Positions 1 through 6,421 of a stretch of DNA of 6,421 nt are shown here, piece after piece. The position numbers and the translations under genes were made by a program. Location: the UHGV virus genome UHGV-0398751. One strand, 5' to 3'. This DNA comes from a virus. Position 1 is the stretch's first letter. Each line of letters opens with the position of its first letter. The notes under the pieces were generated by a model, which had not been told where the DNA came from, made no database searches, and saw nothing but the letters and a program-made list of their open reading frames with translations.

Positions 1-752
1 AAAAGATCCCGAGTAGAGGGGTTAATAACCATCAAAGGTTTACCAGAAGCATCATAAGCGACAAAACGACAGCCATTATAAAAAGCAGTACGGACGTTAT
101 CCGAATCAAAGGACAAAGGAAAGGAGACTTTATCAACTGCTTTAGTTAAAGAAGGTCTAAGAGTGTCAACATAACGAAATGAAGAGACAGAGGGTGCCGG
201 ATCAGAACCAGCAAGTTCATCAGCTGTTTTAGTAAAAAGCAAGTTTTCATAAGCCGAAAGGGTAAGTCTGCCAGGCATCAAGGTAGTATTACATTGACTT
301 GTCTTGTCTCCAGTATACCAATCCCAAGTAGAAGTAATAGTATTACCAAAATTACCAACCAAAGTAGTAGGAATACCAAGATAGTCCATTAACTGACCGG
401 TCTTCAACATTTTATCAATAATCGTCTGACTGTTGAAATCATGATAAGGTTCTTCAAGACCTGTACGGAAATTTCCTATAAAATCCTTGTAATCTTTCCA
501 AAGAGCACGAAGAGGATAGCGGAAGTAAGCAATACTAGCACGCATGCGTGTTTGTATAGGAAACACCATAGGCATAAGCTGTAATGCCGGAATAGGTTTA
601 GCGCGAAAAGACGTTTTCGCAGGGACTAGTTCACACTGAATAGGTGTAATACGACCTATTTGCGTCGTTAAGTTGTTAACATGTGTCCAATCGAATGTAT
701 TTTGTTTTACATTATTATCGGGTTCTAAGGTTGCATCCCAAATATTTGCCAT
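1..752 (-). CDS. VP1: Major capsid protein VP1 (F-like), N-terminal 250 codons. ATG at 752..750; the frame stays open to position 1 and continues at the window 3' end, since the genome is circular.
   Basis: Manual minus-strand translation has no in-frame stop from 752 to 1. It gives MANIWDATLEPDNNVKQNTFDWTHVNNLTTQIGRITPIQCELVPAKTSFRAKPIPALQLMPMVFPIQTRMRASIAYFRYPLRALWKDYKDFIGNF... This matches the conserved Microviridae VP1/F N-terminal pattern (FDLSH-like FDWTH, GxLxPI, PxxxxxP, RxLW..W.DF). The partial codon at positions 2-1 plus the complement of 6421 gives TTG, which is in frame with the minus ORF ending at 4954. Confidence 0.9.
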   Translation of the reverse strand, partial: MANIWDATLEPDNNVKQNTFDWTHVNNLTTQIGRITPIQCELVPAKTSFRAKPIPALQLMPMVFPIQTRMRASIAYFRYPLRALWKDYKDFIGNFRTGLEEPYHDFNSQTIIDKMLKTGQLMDYLGIPTTLVGNFGNTITSTWDWYTGDKTSQCNTTLMPGRLTLSAYENLLFTKTADELAGSDPAPSVSSFRYVDTLRPSLTKAVDKVSFPLSFDSDNVRTAFYNGCRFVAYDASGKPLMVINPSTRDL

Positions 753-948: not shown

Positions 949-1153
949 CCTTTAAGGGGGAATAAGTAGGGTTAACAATCTCTTCAAACGAAGCAAGAAC
1001 AATAAAATCCGGATTATTATCCGAAATAGAAGAACGAATATTCTCAAGCTGAGATGGTCTTCGAAGTTCACCAATATTAATAACGAGTAACGGCTGGAGT
1101 GTTTCACGTGAAACAATTTCCAAAGATCCATAAAGTTTAGTTGGTTTTTCCAT
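926..1153 (-). CDS. Hypothetical acidic small protein (75 aa). It overlaps the start of the 64-aa ORF by 23 nt.
   Basis: ORF on the coding strand of a compact genome, with no obvious motif. Net acidic (about 12 D/E against 8 K/R). It could be a scaffold-like or other accessory protein, but I do not recognise it. Confidence 0.35.
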   Translation of the reverse strand: MEKPTKLYGSLEIVSRETLQPLLVINIGELRRPSQLENIRSSISDNNPDFIVLASFEEIVNPTYSPLKDEKGTDL

Positions 1154-1156
1154 AAC

Positions 1157-1444
1157 TTAATTATTTAAAATTTGACAATTATCCTTAAAGGCATGTTTTT
1201 CAACAACGCCTACAAGTTCAAAATTAGAAGCTTTGCAATAATCTCTAGCATCCTTATAAGCACGAGAGAGAGAAGAAGCAGTCAACATATGAATACCATA
1301 ATAACTTCTGCTAACAGTAAGATACAGGGCAATATATTCTTTTTTCATATTAGTCATTATCAGAAATAGAATGAAGGTAATATCCGGATTTCTCAAAAAC
1401 GCCATCGTATACTTGTTTGGCAATTTCAACAACGGCTTTATCAT
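1157..1444 (-). CDS. Hypothetical protein. It is 95 aa from the ATG at 1444; more likely 63-66 aa from the internal ATG at 1357 or 1348, which begins just after the upstream ORF stop.
   Basis: The long form overlaps the 60-aa ORF by 95 nt in another frame and adds a hydrophobic N-terminus (DITFILFLIM). Starting at M33 (MKKEYIALYLTVSRSYYGIH...), 5 nt separate the stop of ORF 1350..1532 (1350-1352) from the ATG at 1348-1346 on the same strand, with no overlap. The Y-I-A-L-Y...S-Y-Y-G-I spacing is faintly GIY-YIG-like but I do not consider it reliable. Confidence 0.35.
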   Translation of the reverse strand: MIKPLLKLPNKYTMAFLRNPDITFILFLIMTNMKKEYIALYLTVSRSYYGIHMLTASSLSRAYKDARDYCKASNFELVGVVEKHAFKDNCQILNN

Positions 1445-1532
1445 TCAACAAAGACATTAAAGTGTAAGCATCTACTTCAATTTCCCTTTTAATAGTTTTT
1501 TCTGTTGATTTAAATGTTAGTTTTAGTTTCAT
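1350..1532 (-). CDS. Hypothetical small protein (60 aa) immediately downstream of the Rep gene.
   Basis: ORF on the coding strand, 33 nt after the Rep stop. Mixed-charge, probably helical, with no recognisable motif. Confidence 0.35.
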   Translation of the reverse strand: MKLKLTFKSTEKTIKREIEVDAYTLMSLLNDKAVVEIAKQVYDGVFEKSGYYLHSISDND

Positions 1533-1565
1533 AATTATATCTCTTTTTTTTATTACACTACAAAT

Positions 1566-2954
1566 TTACAATATTTCTTTTTCATATGCAAGTTTTATGC
1601 TCTGAATTATGTTATAATTAACATCATTTAAAGATAGCTGTTCTTTTGAAGCAAATCTACGTTTAAGAGAAAGCTCTCTTTTTTCAAGCAATTCAGAACG
1701 GACAGAAATATACGATGCGTCATAGGTTACCAATGATAAGAAACGAACATAATAGTCTAATTCTAACTCAATAGCGAGATTACGTTTGTAAATACGATTA
1801 TAATAACGAGAATCAGGGTTAAGTATTTCGGGCTTGCAATAAGTTTGTACTTTTAAAAACCAGAACTTTTTGTAGATTTCTTTTTCGAGTTTTGAGATCT
1901 TTGGCTGAAGGGGCTCTCCAAGCAACTTATTTAATTGATATTCATTTTGGATACGTTCGGAAATAAGGAGTGTAAACTTTTTAAATGCATCACGGGTAGG
2001 TTTATCTAATACAGCGGAATTACTGGGATAATACAATCGTTTAAAATACGACGGGAGAAACACAGTTTCAGTCTTACCGGAAAATGGATCTGTAACAGAT
2101 ATATCCAAACAATCAGGGTGCTTCATATAAAAATCTTTACAATCACGGGCATAACGAGCACCGAGACCTCCATTTTTACGAGAGGATAAAAAGAATACAG
2201 GACGACATCCTTCAGGAACAGCAGGTTCTTTTCTCATGTATTTCATGACATAGGAAATAACACCTTTATCGCAGGGTTTTACAAGACAGAAGCCAAGAGA
2301 GTCGGTAACAGGCGTACCGTCGGAAAGATATTCTCCAGTAGGCACACGCCAGCAGCGCTCAATAAAATGTAACACAGCAGTAATATTCGGAAAATGTTCA
2401 GAAGGAAATGACCATAGTATGGCATGATAATGAGGACGACCAGACTTATGACCATATTCACCAACAGCAAAATAACGAATGTTCGAAGAATCAATACCTT
2501 TGCGAGTCAAGCTCATACGAAGACGCTTCATGAATAATTGGAATTCTTCTTTAAATACACCATGCTTGGGTAAATGCCTAGGATTGTATGTACATGTAAC
2601 AAACAGAGGCTGAGAGGTAGAATACACATTCTCACAAATGGCACGGAATGACCATTCACGTTTTTTCTTATCACGACAGAGATTACACTTGCCGCAGGGA
2701 ACGACCATAAACATAGGTATAATTTCACCATCAAACGTAGGTATATAGAATTCATCTACATTATCAATAGTTACACCTAAGCGACGACAAGAGTACTTAT
2801 ATTTGGGAAAATAGTAACGATATGCTGCAGCAACATCTTTATCGATAAACACCATACCATTAGGAGTATGATAACGCTTGTATAGAGACAAATTGTAAGC
2901 AAGAGTATGAGCCTGTATAATAACAGGATTAAGGCAAAATATATCTTTATTCAT
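1566..2954 (-). CDS. VP4: Replication initiation protein VP4 (462 aa), a rolling-circle HUH endonuclease (phiX174 gene A-like).
   Basis: Has the three RCR motifs: LFVTCTY (motif 1), GRPHYHAILW (HUH motif 2) and VISYVMKYMRK (Y..K catalytic motif 3). Also a CxxC zinc finger, VVPCGKCNLCRDKKKREW, upstream of motif 1. Confidence 0.93.
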   Translation of the reverse strand: MNKDIFCLNPVIIQAHTLAYNLSLYKRYHTPNGMVFIDKDVAAAYRYYFPKYKYSCRRLGVTIDNVDEFYIPTFDGEIIPMFMVVPCGKCNLCRDKKKREWSFRAICENVYSTSQPLFVTCTYNPRHLPKHGVFKEEFQLFMKRLRMSLTRKGIDSSNIRYFAVGEYGHKSGRPHYHAILWSFPSEHFPNITAVLHFIERCWRVPTGEYLSDGTPVTDSLGFCLVKPCDKGVISYVMKYMRKEPAVPEGCRPVFFLSSRKNGGLGARYARDCKDFYMKHPDCLDISVTDPFSGKTETVFLPSYFKRLYYPSNSAVLDKPTRDAFKKFTLLISERIQNEYQLNKLLGEPLQPKISKLEKEIYKKFWFLKVQTYCKPEILNPDSRYYNRIYKRNLAIELELDYYVRFLSLVTYDASYISVRSELLEKRELSLKRRFASKEQLSLNDVNYNIIQSIKLAYEKEIL

Positions 2955-3002
2955 AACTAATTATCTAGCTCACGGAAGGAGCACTTTACATCAAATCGCA
3001 AT

Positions 3003-3016
3003 AACCGTAAACGGTT
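3003..3016. promoter_or_regulatory. Inverted repeat AACCG-TAAA-CGGTT in the VP2-Rep intergenic region, upstream of the Rep start. Possible operator or Rep-regulatory hairpin.
   Basis: Perfect 5-bp arms with a 4-nt spacer, 50-60 nt upstream of the Rep ATG (2954) and downstream of the VP2 terminator. Confidence 0.3.
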
Positions 3017-3082
3017 GATACACAAGGTGTGTTAGTTGCTTATATATTATCAAGTATTTCGCGAACGATTTTGGAATAAATC

Positions 3083-3110
3083 GTAAAAAGGCGCCCGAAC
3101 AGGGGCGCCA
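3083..3110 (-). terminator. Rho-independent terminator directly after the VP2 stop.
   Basis: On the minus strand: TAA(3116..3114) GTAATTCT GGCGCCC-CTGTTC-GGGCGCC TTTTTACGATTT. It has a 7-bp all-G/C stem (3090..3096 / 3103..3109), a 6-nt loop and a T5 run (complement of the A run at 3085..3089). Confidence 0.6.
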
Positions 3111-3113
3111 GAA

Positions 3114-4283
3114 TTACCTACGTAGACCTTTAACGCCTATAGGCTTGGGTAATCCAATTCCTGTGCCGGAAATGAACGAACCAGCAGAGCCGATCACACC
3201 GGAGACGGAATCTACTATACCTGTAACAAGGTTAACACCTCTTTCAAGGTTTTTAAACGTCTTGTCAGAATCAAGGTTAAACGCGGCTTGGTCACCTTGT
3301 ATATTAATAAGGCGGTCGAGCTTCCCGTACATGCTAGTGCGGGCACGCATCTCTTCTCTGGAAGTGTATTGGGTCTTAACACCTGCTGACTTAAGAGCAG
3401 TATCTGCATTAATATTCAATACAGTAGCGGAACGGGTAGCCAAATATGTAGCAGCTTGCTCGTAATTAAGGCGAATAGTGGAATTATTGACACGCACTTG
3501 TTCCTGAAATTCTGCCACACGCTGACGAAATTCCTTCGAACGCATCATCATACCAAAACGTGTAGCTGCGGTATTCGCATTAATATTTCTGATGTTAGCT
3601 TTAACTTCATCCGCTTTCTTGTATAGCAAATCAGTATTGGCAGCAGCCTCAGTTATACGGGCAGAGGCTAGCTCAGCCTCTTTATGATTCAACTTTCCAA
3701 TAGAATGATTTACATAAATGGTAGAGCGTCCAATCTCCAAAGCTTGCTCATTCTGTGCAGCACGGGTAAGAGCATCAGCAGAGAGAATTTTACCTTCAAT
3801 CTTAAGGTTTTCAGTTTCTTGCCTTGTCTTACCTTTATCAGCCTCTAGTTTCCGAATCTGTGCAGCTACAAGAGATTGACTTACAACGTTGTTAGTGATG
3901 TCTCCAATCGTAGCTTTCTGTCCAATAGCGGAAACATCCGTAGGCGTAGCAGGAGCAACAGGAGTGACAGAAGGGGAAGAAGAAGCAGTGTTTTGAGCAT
4001 TACCACCATAGAACAAATCAGCATTAACACCTGCGTCACGAAGACGTTGGCGCATAGCTTCAGGGCTATTGTATTGGTTTTCTCTGTTCCATTGGTCAAT
4101 ACTCCATTGGTTTGCTTGCTCTGCCATAGCCTTGTTAAATACTCTTGATCTCTCATTTTCTTCACGTTGAAAAGCTATTTGCTTATCAATATTGGCGTTC
4201 TGTTGTTTATTACCAACAACATTACCAAGAAGAGAAGCTCCGCCACTAAGGACAGAGCCAAGAAATTTACTGAAAAATCCCAT
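3114..4283 (-). CDS. VP2: Minor capsid / DNA pilot protein VP2 (389 aa, H-like).
   Basis: Gly-rich hydrophobic N-terminus (MGFFSKFLGSVLSGGASLLGNVVG). Conserved Microviridae VP2 block ...FNKAMAEQANQWSIDQWNRENQYNSPEAMRQRLRDAGVNADLFYGG (the F.E.M...A.QR...AG.NP.L pattern). Long Ala/Gln/Glu-rich coiled-coil middle and a Gly-rich C-terminus. Located immediately after VP1 and the small ORF, as in other microviruses. Confidence 0.85.
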   Translation of the reverse strand: MGFFSKFLGSVLSGGASLLGNVVGNKQQNANIDKQIAFQREENERSRVFNKAMAEQANQWSIDQWNRENQYNSPEAMRQRLRDAGVNADLFYGGNAQNTASSSPSVTPVAPATPTDVSAIGQKATIGDITNNVVSQSLVAAQIRKLEADKGKTRQETENLKIEGKILSADALTRAAQNEQALEIGRSTIYVNHSIGKLNHKEAELASARITEAAANTDLLYKKADEVKANIRNINANTAATRFGMMMRSKEFRQRVAEFQEQVRVNNSTIRLNYEQAATYLATRSATVLNINADTALKSAGVKTQYTSREEMRARTSMYGKLDRLINIQGDQAAFNLDSDKTFKNLERGVNLVTGIVDSVSGVIGSAGSFISGTGIGLPKPIGVKGLRR

Positions 4284-4286
4284 AAG

Positions 4287-4598
4287 CTATTCTCCATATA
4301 ATTGAATGTCAGACTTTTGAGCTTTCATTACACGTTTTTGTGAAAGTTTTTCGGTTTCCCAAACAGAGCACATAGTTGCATCTCGTCTGAATTGCGGTTC
4401 AATATTCCAACTAGCACCTTCTTGTGGAGAAAGGAAATTTTGTGCATTCGGCAGAGAGACGGCTATACCTTTGTCGGTTAAAGCCTTGATATCACTCGGT
4501 GTGAGCGCCAAGCCAGGTTTTGTACAAATGTGATCAACCTCATGATTGTGTACGCATTGACAGGGGTTAAGCTGTGCTTTAAAAATTCTTTTTGCCAT
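4287..4598 (-). CDS. Hypothetical protein (103 aa) with an N-terminal Cys/His cluster. Its stop lies 3 nt before the VP2 ATG.
   Basis: MAKRIFKAQLNPCQCVHNHEVDHICTKPG... carries CxC-x-HxH-x3-H-x-C, which resembles a Zn-binding or HNH-type (xEVDHI) beta-beta-alpha-metal motif. The rest has no known motif. A/T-rich leader and no Shine-Dalgarno sequence, like the other genes. Confidence 0.45.
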   Translation of the reverse strand: MAKRIFKAQLNPCQCVHNHEVDHICTKPGLALTPSDIKALTDKGIAVSLPNAQNFLSPQEGASWNIEPQFRRDATMCSVWETEKLSQKRVMKAQKSDIQLYGE

Positions 4599-4953
4599 AA
4601 TCTTTTGTTTTTAATTGTTTATTTTTATTTGGGCGTTACGGCTAAAGCCGTCGGGCTTTCTGCGGTACACGGTACTGCTGTCAGTCCCTAACGCACGCAA
4701 CAAAGTTGCTATCTTTGTCCGGTATACACCGGAGAGAATCTTTTCACTTTTAATCTTACGAAACTGCAAAGATAAGGTAGAACGCTCGAAATGTCCAATG
4801 AACCTTGCACTAAAAATGATTAAATACGCGCACACGCAAGCGCGCGCACGCATTTAACAATTTTTACTACAAGAACCCTTGGTCATATCGCTCGTTCTGC
4901 TTGTGAAAGCAGTGTCGGAAGAAAAAAAGAAAAAACATTCTCTTTTTCACCAA
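4599..4953 (-). promoter_or_regulatory. Largest non-coding region (355 nt) between the VP1 stop and the next gene. It is hairpin-rich and locally GC-rich. Candidate promoter and ssDNA replication-origin or primosome-assembly-like region.
   Basis: No credible ORF on the coding strand. Hairpins at 4638..4651 (ACGGC-TAAA-GCCGT), 4700..4718 (ACAAAG-7nt-CTTTGT), 4719..4732 (CCGGT-ATAC-ACCGG) and 4897..4912 (CTGCTT-GTGA-AAGCAG). Quasi-palindrome TTAAAT-[CG/CA alternating 26 nt]-ATTTAA at 4820..4857. CACGCAA occurs at 4694..4700 and 4833..4839. The ATG of ORF 4287..4598 follows an A/T-rich leader typical of Bacteroidetes. Confidence 0.5.
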
Positions 4954-6421
4954 TTAGTCAAGACGCGGTATTGCGACACGAGCGACAGGAAGTTTCACGG
5001 TGCAATCAATTAAAATCTGTCCGTAAACTTTATCCGTAACATCTGTAACACTGAATACATCTGTAACCTGATCAGGGTCTATCGTTAAGAAGCCTTGGGA
5101 AAGTTCCGGCTTTTTATCAAACACTCGATGCATTAAGAAGTTAGACAAATCAGTACGGAATAAGCCATGCGCCTGATCATAGCGCTGACAGTATTCATAC
5201 CACGGTCTTTGATAACCAAAGGTTTCCGTCAATGAATTAGGATCAGCATTATACGCCTGAATTGGACATACTTCCTTATAAGTAATTGGCTGGAATGATA
5301 TATTATTAAACTCAGGGTTGAAGTGATCTAAAAGTCCACGATACAAGAAATGTTTCGGCAATAATTGAGTATAAACAGGCAACGGAGTAATTACCAATAG
5401 ACCCATAATAATACTTTCTTCATCACAGAAGCACTCAATGTTAGCATCAGAACCTCCACGGAAATAACCTATACCTGCTTGCGAGCCAAGGACATCTTTG
5501 TAAGCACCTTCACCTTCAGCAGTTTGATCTACGGTTTGAGAAATAGCATTCATATTAATATCACGAGAGAAGCCTCCGAAGAATTCAGGTAACAGCAAAT
5601 CAGCGTAACGTACTTTAATATCGAAACGACCCTCAATGATTTCTTTATACGAGTAACCTTTACGCATGTTAAGCTCTAGGAATTTCTGGTAGGCGTTTAC
5701 ATTACGTAAATCAGTAATAGAGATACCACTAGTTACCAAATCAAAAAGTGTACGCGCGGAACGGACGGTTGTACCATTATCGAGCTCTACATATTTAACA
5801 CCTTTCAACTCGTCCTTGTCAGATTCAAATTCAAGAGAATAACGTTTTCCATCTTCGTCAACCATAGCTACTTTTGTCTGCTGCGTTAATGTCGGGTTAC
5901 CTTGTTCGTCGTAAACTCTAGTAACCTGATCATAAGTGGTGATACCTACAAGAGGCGCATTGCCTTGCTGTGGTGATTGAACGGAAGTCGTAAGAAAGTC
6001 TTTTTCCCAGTTGGCATAACGTAACTCATAAGGATATGTATCAGCTCCACCTTCATAAGTCGGGATCCATTGATTATATTGAACAACACCATCGATATAA
6101 TATGGATTATTACGATTGTCACGATAAATGGAATTATAAATACCTTCGTAAGCACGGGCAGCGTAGGCAGAGAGCTTGATTTGTTTATCCTTATTAGCCG
6201 AGTTCGAATTATAATACGGAGAATTCGATATAGAAAGTTCGGCAATATTAGGATTGACTTCCATATAAGAAACACTGCCTAAGGTACCTAAAAACAAACC
6301 ATTAGAACCAAGAGGAGACGAAAAATTAGATGCCTGAATAGACGGGAAATATAAGCGTAACTTAGCCATCCTGCTAACTACATCAGAAGTAAGAACAAGT
6401 GTAGCTTGGTTACTAGACAGC
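4954..6421 (-). CDS. VP1: Major capsid protein VP1, C-terminal 488 codons plus TAA stop at 4954..4956. The frame is open upstream of the listed ATG (6369) to the window edge, so this is the continuation of the 752..1 segment.
   Basis: ORF track shows a 471-aa protein. The 17 codons upstream (6420..6370: LSSNQATLVLTSDVVSR) have no stop. The frame joins the 5' segment if the window is circularised, giving about 739 aa in total. The size and composition fit the large VP1 of Bacteroidetes-associated microviruses. Confidence 0.88.
   Translation of the reverse strand, partial: LSSNQATLVLTSDVVSRMAKLRLYFPSIQASNFSSPLGSNGLFLGTLGSVSYMEVNPNIAELSISNSPYYNSNSANKDKQIKLSAYAARAYEGIYNSIYRDNRNNPYYIDGVVQYNQWIPTYEGGADTYPYELRYANWEKDFLTTSVQSPQQGNAPLVGITTYDQVTRVYDEQGNPTLTQQTKVAMVDEDGKRYSLEFESDKDELKGVKYVELDNGTTVRSARTLFDLVTSGISITDLRNVNAYQKFLELNMRKGYSYKEIIEGRFDIKVRYADLLLPEFFGGFSRDINMNAISQTVDQTAEGEGAYKDVLGSQAGIGYFRGGSDANIECFCDEESIIMGLLVITPLPVYTQLLPKHFLYRGLLDHFNPEFNNISFQPITYKEVCPIQAYNADPNSLTETFGYQRPWYEYCQRYDQAHGLFRTDLSNFLMHRVFDKKPELSQGFLTIDPDQVTDVFSVTDVTDKVYGQILIDCTVKLPVARVAIPRLD

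Follow-up and report, generated by a model that had tools for sequence, protein, structure and literature searches.

A conserved promoter-bearing hairpin module that folds on the virion strand of a microvirus: a candidate single-strand origin of the RNA-polymerase type

The longest non-coding region of UHGV virus genome UHGV-0398751 – a microvirus genome of 6,421 nucleotides, the whole of which we refer to as the window – is a conserved, orientation-specific, cassette-like and cis-acting module that folds on the virion (gene-sense) strand. The region occupies positions 4953..4599 of the minus strand, between the stop codon of the capsid gene VP1 (4954) and the start codon of ORF103 (4598), and it is dominated by an imperfect hairpin of about 210 nucleotides that carries a promoter of Bacteroidota type in its 3′ arm. 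There is clear evidence that the structured region exists, is strongly conserved and constitutes a new family. We propose, with rather less than even confidence, that the module is a single-strand origin of the RNA-polymerase type, and we regard it as the best current candidate for the start of the complementary strand. A first-pass annotation of the window had suggested a complementary-strand origin or primosome-assembly-like element at this location; as a prediction from sequence the origin idea is plausible, and the evidence favours a promoter hairpin used by RNA polymerase over a primosome site. The preference follows from the architecture, which is that of a promoter set inside a long hairpin.

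Microviridae package the strand that has the polarity of mRNA, and the minus strand of the window, which carries every gene, is therefore the virion strand. As the first-pass annotation had anticipated, this strand holds far more structure than expected by chance: folded as single-stranded DNA, the minus strand of the region reaches -70.1 kcal/mol (z = -7.6; 0 of 100 shuffles were as good), against -62.8 kcal/mol for the plus strand. What had been overlooked was the largest element. Domain I, the hairpin of about 210 nucleotides (4943..4733, minus), is seen in the minimum-energy fold of the single strand, as an inverted repeat (I1), and in consensus structures drawn from 17 and from 53 homologues. 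Its 5′ arm runs from 4943 to 4846 and its 3′ arm from 4831 to 4733, the apex being near 4838/4839. The 5′ arm has at its base a polypyrimidine tract, TTTTTTCTTTTTTTCTTCC (4935..4917, minus), which is invariant or nearly so in 53 copies while its partners in the 3′ arm alternate between A and G. The tip (4858..4819, minus), a GC-rich run of alternating purines and pyrimidines followed by a T-rich run, looks like an intrinsic terminator for the VP1 mRNA and ranks first among the terminator-like sites (18 pairs, tail CATTTTTAGT). A GC-rich tip is present in the window and in the second of the two lineages described below; about half of the homologues (the L002 type) have AT-rich tips, so that a terminator-like tip is not a conserved feature of the family. 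Of the five local hairpins drawn in the first-pass annotation, those at 4638..4651 and 4719..4732 are real and conserved. The one at 4820..4857 is merely the tip of Domain I, and the one at 4700..4718 has a register peculiar to the window, the conserved hairpin there being GCAAC-TTT-GTTGC at 4709..4697; that at 4897..4912 is not conserved, and this stretch is instead paired to the opposite arm and makes up one strand of an internal loop. As a separate observation, a GC/GT alternating purine/pyrimidine hairpin, RCGTGCGYGC-loop-GCRCGCACGY, recurs in otherwise unrelated regions – at 4825..4852 of the window, at about 2797..2822 of L150 (ON840045.1) and at about 1836..1861 of L005 – and may be an independent terminator or a module prone to form Z-DNA.

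The fold is also supported by its relatives. Searched with megablast, the whole genome matched a single GenBank phage, and that in Rep only; the non-coding region used alone as a query returned 22 microvirus records at 70-94% identity; no other nucleotide segment of these genomes is as well conserved. Viral and metagenomic contigs were scanned with patterns and the matches filtered through an nhmmer profile, which gathered at least 53 distinct copies, and structure statistics were computed on an alignment of 53 sequences, a first pass on 17 having given the same picture of covariation. Among the matches listed the module occurs in two contexts only, in both of them co-oriented with the genes. 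In lineage 1 (at least about 33 copies), to which the window belongs, it lies between the VP1 stop codon and ORF103; in lineage 2 (at least about 20 copies), which has a separate scaffold gene, it follows VP2 and small open reading frames (ORFs) and precedes Rep. Between the lineages VP1 shows about 21% and Rep 25-34% amino-acid identity to the proteins of the window, and the module 66-77% nucleotide identity. The position after the capsid gene, to which the first-pass annotation had drawn attention as a parallel with phiX174, therefore holds for lineage 1 and fails for lineage 2, where the module stands directly upstream of Rep.

Across the 53 copies the consensus structure comprises 72 pairs. 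In the alignment 98.8% of cells are paired, as against 40-52% when partner columns are slid; double-sided (compensatory) changes affect 39 of the 72 pairs, 18 of them in helices 1, 2 and 4 of the hairpin; and the covariation score is 0.33, compared with 0.03-0.07 in the slid controls, with the observed values reached by 0 of 500 shuffles. Because the copies share ancestry the cell counts overstate the number of independent events, and the stronger evidence is provided by the slid-partner controls and by the variety of pair types over two lineages and several sub-types. G:T pairs number 289 and A:C pairs 9, which indicates that the fold is selected on the sense strand only. In accord with this, the sense strand has the more stable fold of the two in every one of the 53 copies, under DNA and RNA parameters alike, and all 57 placements of the module are co-oriented with genes. 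On this evidence the fold is a property of the virion strand, or of sense RNA, and neither a cruciform nor a protein-binding palindrome. The stems are thus maintained in relatives by abundant compensatory change and on the virion-sense strand only, which is a requirement of an element that works as single-stranded DNA. The first-pass annotation had named a lack of stem conservation in relatives as a refuting result, and on this count its idea clearly survives.

A second body of evidence concerns the promoter. In Bacteroidota the sigma-A consensus consists of a -7 element, TAnnTTTG, and a -33 element, TTTG, placed 19-21 nucleotides upstream, the latter being only weakly conserved even in the hosts (PMC7366714). 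The 3′ arm of Domain I contains a -7 box, TATCTTTG (4774..4767, minus), that fits this consensus and is invariant in all 53 copies. It falls in the largest internal loop of the hairpin (about 7 x 7 nucleotides), in which TATCTTT (4774..4768) stands opposite 4908..4902; 52 of 53 individual DNA folds leave the box unpaired, and the side facing it varies freely in sequence. A -33-like box, CATTGG (4800..4795, minus), has its TTG 21 nucleotides upstream of the -7 box and is paired with CCAAGG of the 5′ arm (4882..4877); ATTGG is invariant, and TTGG is paired in all 53 individual folds. Apart from one gap in L029 the length of the spacer is constant. TATCTTTGC and ATTGG are invariant at a fixed spacing of 21 nucleotides, whereas the hairpin tip tolerates insertions and deletions of 20 nucleotides. 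Conservation in the 3′ arm is highest in the blocks GTTCATTGG and CCTATCTTTGCAATTTCGTAA, and the spacer between them is variable in sequence, covarying and of fixed length.

A 21-mer spanning the -7 box was scanned against 185,579 species genomes, one genome per species. It yielded eight matches: all four of those in Bacteroidota lie 13-14 nucleotides before the ATG of long, co-oriented ORFs, and none of the four outside Bacteroidota occupies such a position. On this sequence evidence the -7 block can be identified as a genuine promoter of host type, and it points to a Bacteroidota host. In viral contigs the 21-mer is always accompanied by the 5′ arm (11 of 11), and in all copies the promoter precedes ORF103 or Rep in the same orientation. 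The earlier expectation that the region should hold the promoter of the ORF103-VP2 transcript is therefore well matched by an invariant Bacteroidota -7 box with a TTG 21 nucleotides upstream; from the position of the box and the geometry of the hairpin, transcription is predicted to start within 4765..4757 (minus). A sigma-70 promoter scan of the window, whose consensus differs from that of the host, gave 20 sites where 18 were expected.

We considered, and rejected, the generalisation that promoters sit in hairpins. The window has a second Bacteroidota-type promoter, TTG-N20-TAAATTTG (about 1592..1561, minus), which overlaps the end of Rep upstream of small ORFs and VP1 and lies in unstructured DNA (z = -0.42), so that embedding in a hairpin is special to the promoter at 4774..4767 and, together with the constant company of the 5′ arm in viral contigs, looks purposeful. 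The promoters of L006 and of phiHBP1 likewise lack such a long hairpin. Phage phiHBP1 is the only cultured Bacteroides microvirus (PMC13064476); it is a distant relative of lineage 2 and has TAnnTTTG boxes, and on examination it proved not to carry the module. In L008 (PQ006760.1) the Rep promoter is enclosed by a different long-range stem: within the non-coding stretch 1083..1811 a perfect 15-bp inverted repeat, CATTCCGCGCAAGAA / TTCTTGCGCGGAATG, flanks both the Rep promoter and the Rep start codon.

How might such a structure work? We suggest, at about one chance in three, that it is a dual-mode promoter-origin, in which one Bacteroidota sigma-A promoter is read on two templates, the folded single strand and the replicative form. 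In the infecting single-stranded genome the hairpin would offer this promoter in the form of a duplex that is already partly open. Since the promoter is located in the 3′ arm and directed at the hairpin's base, transcription would be templated first by the 5′ arm and next by the 3′ end of VP1: host RNA polymerase would start near 4911 on the 5′ arm and copy toward 4943 and into VP1. This would yield an RNA of about 30 nucleotides, annealed to the virion strand; it would be rich in purines, given the nearly invariant tract TTTTTTCTTTTTTTCTTCC of the 5′ arm, which we infer to be its template. With its 3′ end suitably facing, this primer would be extended by host DNA polymerase into the complementary strand. 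Once the genome is double-stranded the same boxes would act as an ordinary promoter for ORF103-VP2 (or for Rep in lineage 2), and in the window the GC-rich tip with its T-run would probably also end the VP1 mRNA. Hairpins II and III and domain IV, described below, could be accessory, either as SSB-resistant hairpins or as a second priming site. This priming geometry, read from the anatomy, matches that of RNA-polymerase-dependent single-strand origins and of plasmid single-stranded-DNA promoters, and hairpin promoters that make primer RNA are known elsewhere (PMC9849209, PMC12672017, PMC10085688, PMC4595007).

A serious competitor, to which we give somewhat less weight than to the origin, is that the element operates in RNA only, the promoter being an ordinary double-stranded one and the fold acting in transcripts. 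The hairpin would then be a terminator, a 3′-end stabiliser or an RNase III site for the VP1 mRNA or its read-through product, while the structured 5′ untranslated region made up of hairpins II and III and domain IV would stabilise or regulate the ORF103 or Rep mRNA. The folding strand and the mRNA do share polarity; pairs of the G:U type are many, and include tandem and invariant ones; the window's hairpin ends in a tip that closely resembles an intrinsic terminator; and the advantage of the sense over the antisense strand is larger under RNA parameters, at -17 kcal/mol. Domain IV, moreover, has a junction with conserved purine-rich strands of RNA-like appearance and lies in the predicted 5′ untranslated region in both lineages.

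Three features lean toward a role at the level of DNA: the covariation of the lower helices, the DNA-type triloops and the placement of domain IV. The lower helices join sequence located before the terminator-like tip to sequence located past the predicted transcription start, and both sides are therefore found together only in the single-stranded genome or in a read-through RNA: the lower 36 covarying pairs span tip and predicted start, and a terminated VP1 mRNA, or the promoter's own transcript, holds one side of them. About half of the family, as noted, lacks a GC-rich terminator-like tip. Both a terminator-like hairpin and the proximal promoter follow domain IV in L006 and L008, where it is hence not simply a 5′ untranslated region. 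The loops are mainly GNA and T-rich triloops and not GNRA or UNCG tetraloops, and Rfam offers no match. Finally, an element required in RNA only does not account for a -7 box that is kept unpaired although the opposite strand is free to vary.

Downstream of the promoter hairpin are three smaller elements, all on the minus strand. Hairpin II, CCGG-TGTATA-CCGG (4732..4719), has a stem that is replaced in compensatory fashion in relatives, where it reads TGCG-TGAAA-CGCA, GCGC-GGA-GCGC or GCGC-GAA-GCGC, with triloops of the GNA type. Hairpin III, GCAAC-TTT-GTTGC (4709..4697), is nearly invariant, a single compensatory change from C-G to T-A occurring in three copies. Domain IV (4694..4633) is a stem-closed junction. 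Its closing stem P1 pairs 4694..4690 with 4637..4633 and covaries at three of five pairs in 16 diverse copies; P2 pairs GGG (4688..4686) with CCC (4655..4653) and has AGG:CCT and GCG:CGC variants; and it contains the hairpins IVa (4677..4660) and IVb (ACGGC-TTTA-GCCGT, 4651..4638). The junction strands AT(T/A)GNAG and GNAAAG are conserved. A kink-turn was entertained for this junction and dropped by eye, the non-bulged strand being AG-CCC rather than GA-CCC. From 4632 to 4599 an unstructured, A-rich leader (15% GC, read from the sequence) leads to the start codon of ORF103.

It is in these smaller hairpins that an origin of the G4 (primase) or phiX174 (PriA) type would have to be sought – in domain IV, alone or together with hairpins II and III – the long hairpin then being a separate promoter or terminator. 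Several observations speak in favour of this. Domain IV is the most widely shared piece of the module, is found also without the long hairpin, and has a closing stem that covaries. Among the hairpin loops of domains II-IV 61% are triloops and 37% are GNA triloops, as against 1.3% GNA in shuffles, although the count is inflated in that some 29 of the 76 GNA loops stem from a cut-off local hairpin. These GNA loops are closed by C-G or T-A and include GCGAAGC, GCGGAGC and GCGTAGC in many copies, and the apical loops of domain IV are repeatedly GCGAAGC, GCGTAGC or C-GAA-G mini-hairpins. Extraordinarily stable DNA mini-hairpins of the GCGAAGC type occur at the primase-dependent complementary-strand origins of G4, St-1 and alpha3, and also at ssiA (PMC13037366), and the phiX174 site lies after the capsid gene, ahead of gene G (PMC9865509). 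Both of the known microvirus systems rely on primase or PriA. Set against these points, domain IV is cleanly gone from the module site in L012, whose Rep is 92.6% identical to that of the window, and in L126, L084 and L039; the CTG of the window's domain IV is not conserved; and the covariation of the 210-nucleotide hairpin is left unexplained. Nor did the region show any feature that points specifically to a primosome assembly site of the phiX174 type, there being no sequence model of Bacteroidota primase or PriA sites to compare it with. On balance we judge an origin of this kind improbable.

The distribution of the module adds to the picture. Every copy among the matches listed sits in a contig of about 1-13 kb with microvirus genes, including the 38 metagenomic copies that passed the profile, and each genome has one copy in a single orientation. 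The long metagenomic contigs among the 120 pattern matches listed failed the nhmmer profile and are chance matches. Two contigs of 8200 nucleotides, L013 and L040 (one from the viral and one from the metagenome collection), contain the module twice, 6382 nucleotides apart; this reflects an assembly longer than one genome unit and not two copies per genome. Domain IV occurs without Domain I in other microviruses, and a pattern for a variant of hairpin IVb had no match in the viral contigs. The closest GenBank relative of the window, ON840045.1 (L150; 83.5% amino-acid identity in Rep, 78.6% in ORF103), has at the same position (2680..3150) an unrelated region of 471 nucleotides that is equally structured (z = -6.55). 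These sequence comparisons indicate that non-coding regions are swapped as cassettes between close relatives. The single-strand origins of plasmids behave similarly: they are structured, orientation-specific non-coding modules exchanged among diverged rolling-circle replicons. A separate sign of exchange is seen in L012 (IMGVR_UViG_3300045988_002883), whose VP1 is a mosaic (66.7% identity to the window over residues 1-563 and 93.8% over residues 564-739), which suggests recombination inside the capsid gene.

Cassette behaviour raises the question of whether the module is no more than a selfish palindromic insertion, MITE- or PATE-like, of no use to the phage. Two insertion contexts, absence from close relatives and a long inverted repeat are what such an element would show. 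Its borders in the shared module, on the other hand, lack terminal inverted repeats and target duplications, and among the matches listed it is confined to microvirus genomes, in one copy and one orientation; it provides the sole recognisable promoter upstream of ORF103-VP2, and both pairing and boxes are under purifying selection. We give this explanation little credence. An attachment site, of the folded XerC/D kind used by CTXphi or of a dif-like kind as in enterogokushoviruses, by which the phage would integrate into Bacteroidota chromosomes, seems if anything slightly less probable still. A long forked hairpin on a single-stranded phage genome does recall CTXphi attP, and a conserved TTGTTAAAT near the tip resembles the XerD arm of E. 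coli dif. Gokushoviruses have been shown to integrate by XerCD, and the same has been proposed for Bacteroidetes microvirus prophages (PMC7062461). Yet among the 185,579 species genomes there was no copy of the element, only short matches to host promoters, and nhmmer found no full element in bacterial genomes or long contigs; the profile-passing metagenomic copies, as described, are all in short contigs with microvirus genes. A complete 28-bp dif-like core was not seen, no search with a dedicated dif profile having been made. With integrated copies absent the attachment-site reading is unsupported, and the idea of a prophage with an attP at this site was rejected.

A role in viral-strand synthesis was also considered, the region serving as rolling-circle origin, Rep-binding site or packaging signal. 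Its location directly upstream of Rep in lineage 2, and a conserved single-stranded tail, CCCAAATAA, that follows domain IV, could be read in this way. However, Rep is only 25-34% identical between the two lineages that share this module, and a far better candidate for a phiX174-like nick site lies elsewhere. At 3055..3029 (minus), about 100 nucleotides upstream of Rep, the sequence ACTTGATAATATATAAGCAACTAACAC comprises ACTTGATA, an AT-rich spacer and AACTAACAC; it is kept in lineage 1 as AACTTGATA-N9-11-AACTGACAC and resembles the phiX174 viral-strand origin (CAACTTGATATTAATAAC...). CTTGATA, found within this motif at 3054..3048, is absent from the sense strand of 4599..4953. From sequence, then, the candidate rolling-circle nick site is probably at 3055..3029, and a viral-strand function for the module itself, rejected in favour of that motif, is highly improbable.

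We return to the proposal that the module is a single-strand origin used by RNA polymerase, against which a number of points must be weighed. Strand polarity cannot separate a DNA from an RNA role, since sense RNA has the polarity of the virion strand; G:T(U) pairs make up 7.6% of the total, two of them invariant, as is typical of RNA helices, and a read-through VP1 transcript could fold alike. The -33 box is ATTG where the consensus is TTTG, and it lies 21 nucleotides upstream, the largest spacing that the consensus allows. As the boxes and the spacer are contiguous on one arm, like those of double-stranded host promoters, the promoter should work on double-stranded DNA as well, and the hairpin is then not needed to create it. 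The known microvirus origins, those of phiX174 and G4, make no use of RNA polymerase. The mechanism is not universal and domain IV might be the real origin, given that so close a relative as ON840045.1 is without the module and that other microviruses carry domain IV without the hairpin. A final point concerns MG945248.1 (L151), an UNVERIFIED GenBank record in which a related region (5489..5878), with domain IV and a hairpin of about 170 nucleotides, lies on the strand opposite to the annotated genes and folds to -64.7 kcal/mol on that strand as against -52.2 kcal/mol on the other. The exact -7 box is absent from this related region, and a search for an independent relative with the same inverted arrangement found none. 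The inversion is either a misassembly or real; should the record prove correct, any strand-specific model would be weakened.

The setting of the module within the genome is straightforward. The window is a complete circular microvirus genome opened inside VP1, as is evident from the capsid gene running across both of its ends, and all genes are on the minus strand. VP1 (752..1 plus 6421..4954) encodes 739 amino acids, although the program's ORF listing gives 471 only. Directly 3′ of the non-coding region is ORF103 (4598..4287), followed by VP2, the pilot protein (4283..3114), and by Rep (2954..1566), after which come several small ORFs. At 355 nucleotides the gap is the longest of the genome, the remaining ones being 159 and 121 nucleotides. 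Its bounds, and the lack of a credible gene within it, are as first described: two ORFs of 80 amino acids have no Pfam or PHROG match, and across the 53 homologues stop-free stretches vary in both frame and length, so that coding potential was rejected. The description of the region as locally GC-rich does not hold, since its GC content is 40.8% compared with 38.5% for the genome, a value equalled or exceeded by 32% of windows of equal length; enrichment in GC is confined to the sub-segments 4633..4694 (60%) and 4819..4858 (52%). Rfam covariance models, run on the whole window and permissively on the region alone, gave no match at gathering score, the best being the snoRNA family snR190 with 21.6 bits against a threshold of 40, and in the searchable literature we found no description of the element at 4599..4953.

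Two neighbouring features deserve mention. ORF103 shows 41-96% amino-acid identity over lineage 1 and in each case lies immediately 3′ of the module; neither Pfam nor PHROG has a match for it, and its N-terminus is rich in Cys and His (CQCVHNHEVDHIC). A canonical intrinsic terminator, GGCGCCCCTGTTCGGGCGCC followed by TTTTT, is found at 3085..3109 (minus), right after the VP2 stop codon, and between it and Rep there is no exact TAnnTTTG box.

Microviruses are among the most abundant phages of the gut. For the start of the complementary strand in members other than phiX174 and G4, the module offers a concrete and strongly conserved candidate with precise coordinates. If the proposal is right, there should be a primer of about 30 nucleotides, sensitive to rifampicin and templated by 4911..4943, and the element would be the first single-strand origin of the RNA-polymerase type both in Microviridae and in Bacteroidota: an exchangeable cassette of about 340 nucleotides moving between microvirus lineages. 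Priming would then be a matter of host-adapted, swappable cassettes, as in rolling-circle plasmids, with a bearing on host range and on the design of synthetic Bacteroides microviruses. Even if the function resides in RNA, at least 53 copies and 39 pairs that covary make the module a well-supported new structured family without a counterpart in Rfam, and the promoter marks the host phylum of these uncultured viruses.

The closest parallels are with elements at which RNA polymerase starts on a single strand. The minus-strand origin of the filamentous phages M13, f1 and fd and the plasmid origin ssoA are imperfect hairpins on which host RNA polymerase makes a short primer; origins of this kind work in single-stranded form only. 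Single-strand origins (sso) have been defined, and three priming routes distinguished, in plasmids; like ssoA, ssoU and ssoT, the origin of ICEBs1 and the filamentous minus-strand origin, the module is a non-coding, orientation-specific and exchangeable cassette of extensive imperfect hairpins (PMC4595007). It differs in belonging to Microviridae, in its host phylum and sequence, and in doubling as a gene promoter, and its dependence on RNA polymerase is predicted only; the module contains no motif of the CS-6 or RSB type. The single-strand promoters of conjugative plasmids – F Frpo1/2, ssi1-3 of ColIb-P9 and newer classes – are stem-loops a few hundred nucleotides long, on whose folded strand RNA polymerase initiates an RNA that can act as primer (PMC9849209, PMC12672017, PMC10085688). 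Here too there is a large stem-loop on the strand that enters the cell, with boxes for the host's primary sigma factor in its stem, and the module has in common with sso and Frpo elements that it is non-coding and orientation-specific and that an imperfect hairpin holds sigma boxes with the single strand as template. The boxes, though, are of the Bacteroidota -33/-7 and not the -35/-10 kind, and sequence similarity is nil. Whereas those of Frpo are reconstituted by folding and switched off in double-stranded DNA, those of the module are contiguous on one arm, and promoter activity restricted to single-stranded DNA is accordingly not what its sequence leads one to expect. The entering strand at Frpo is moreover the template of the downstream genes, while that of the module is the sense strand, so that an RNA made on it would be VP1 antisense, with no use other than priming.

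Other resemblances are more partial. An irregular hairpin of about 200 nucleotides with a central bubble recalls 6S RNA, an open-promoter mimic bound by sigma-A holoenzyme. The bubble of the module, by contrast, is only about 7 x 7 nucleotides and holds the genuine promoter of a downstream gene, and no Rfam 6S match was obtained even with permissive settings; Bacteroides does have a 6S RNA with product RNAs (PMC7366714). With the phiX174 primosome site and the G4, St-1 and alpha3 origins the module shares virion-strand hairpins in an intergenic region beside the capsid gene (PMC13037366, PMC9865509). Those sites span 45-140 nucleotides of small hairpins, the phiX174-type site being a hairpin of about 55-70 nucleotides bound by PriA, and they are independent of RNA polymerase, whereas the module is dominated by the 210-nucleotide promoter hairpin and its position relative to the capsid gene is not conserved. 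In the reekeekee- and roodoodoo-microviruses, finally, conserved intergenic hairpins of 13-64 nucleotides with compensatory substitutions have been proposed as initiation sites for the negative strand (PMC9865509). They occur in tiny microviruses outside Bacteroidota, without a reported embedded promoter and without sequence relationship to the module. The kind of evidence is the same in both cases – prediction under DNA parameters, nucleotide conservation and compensatory change – and it is these short conserved hairpins of very small microviruses that are the nearest precedent for the module (PMC9865509).

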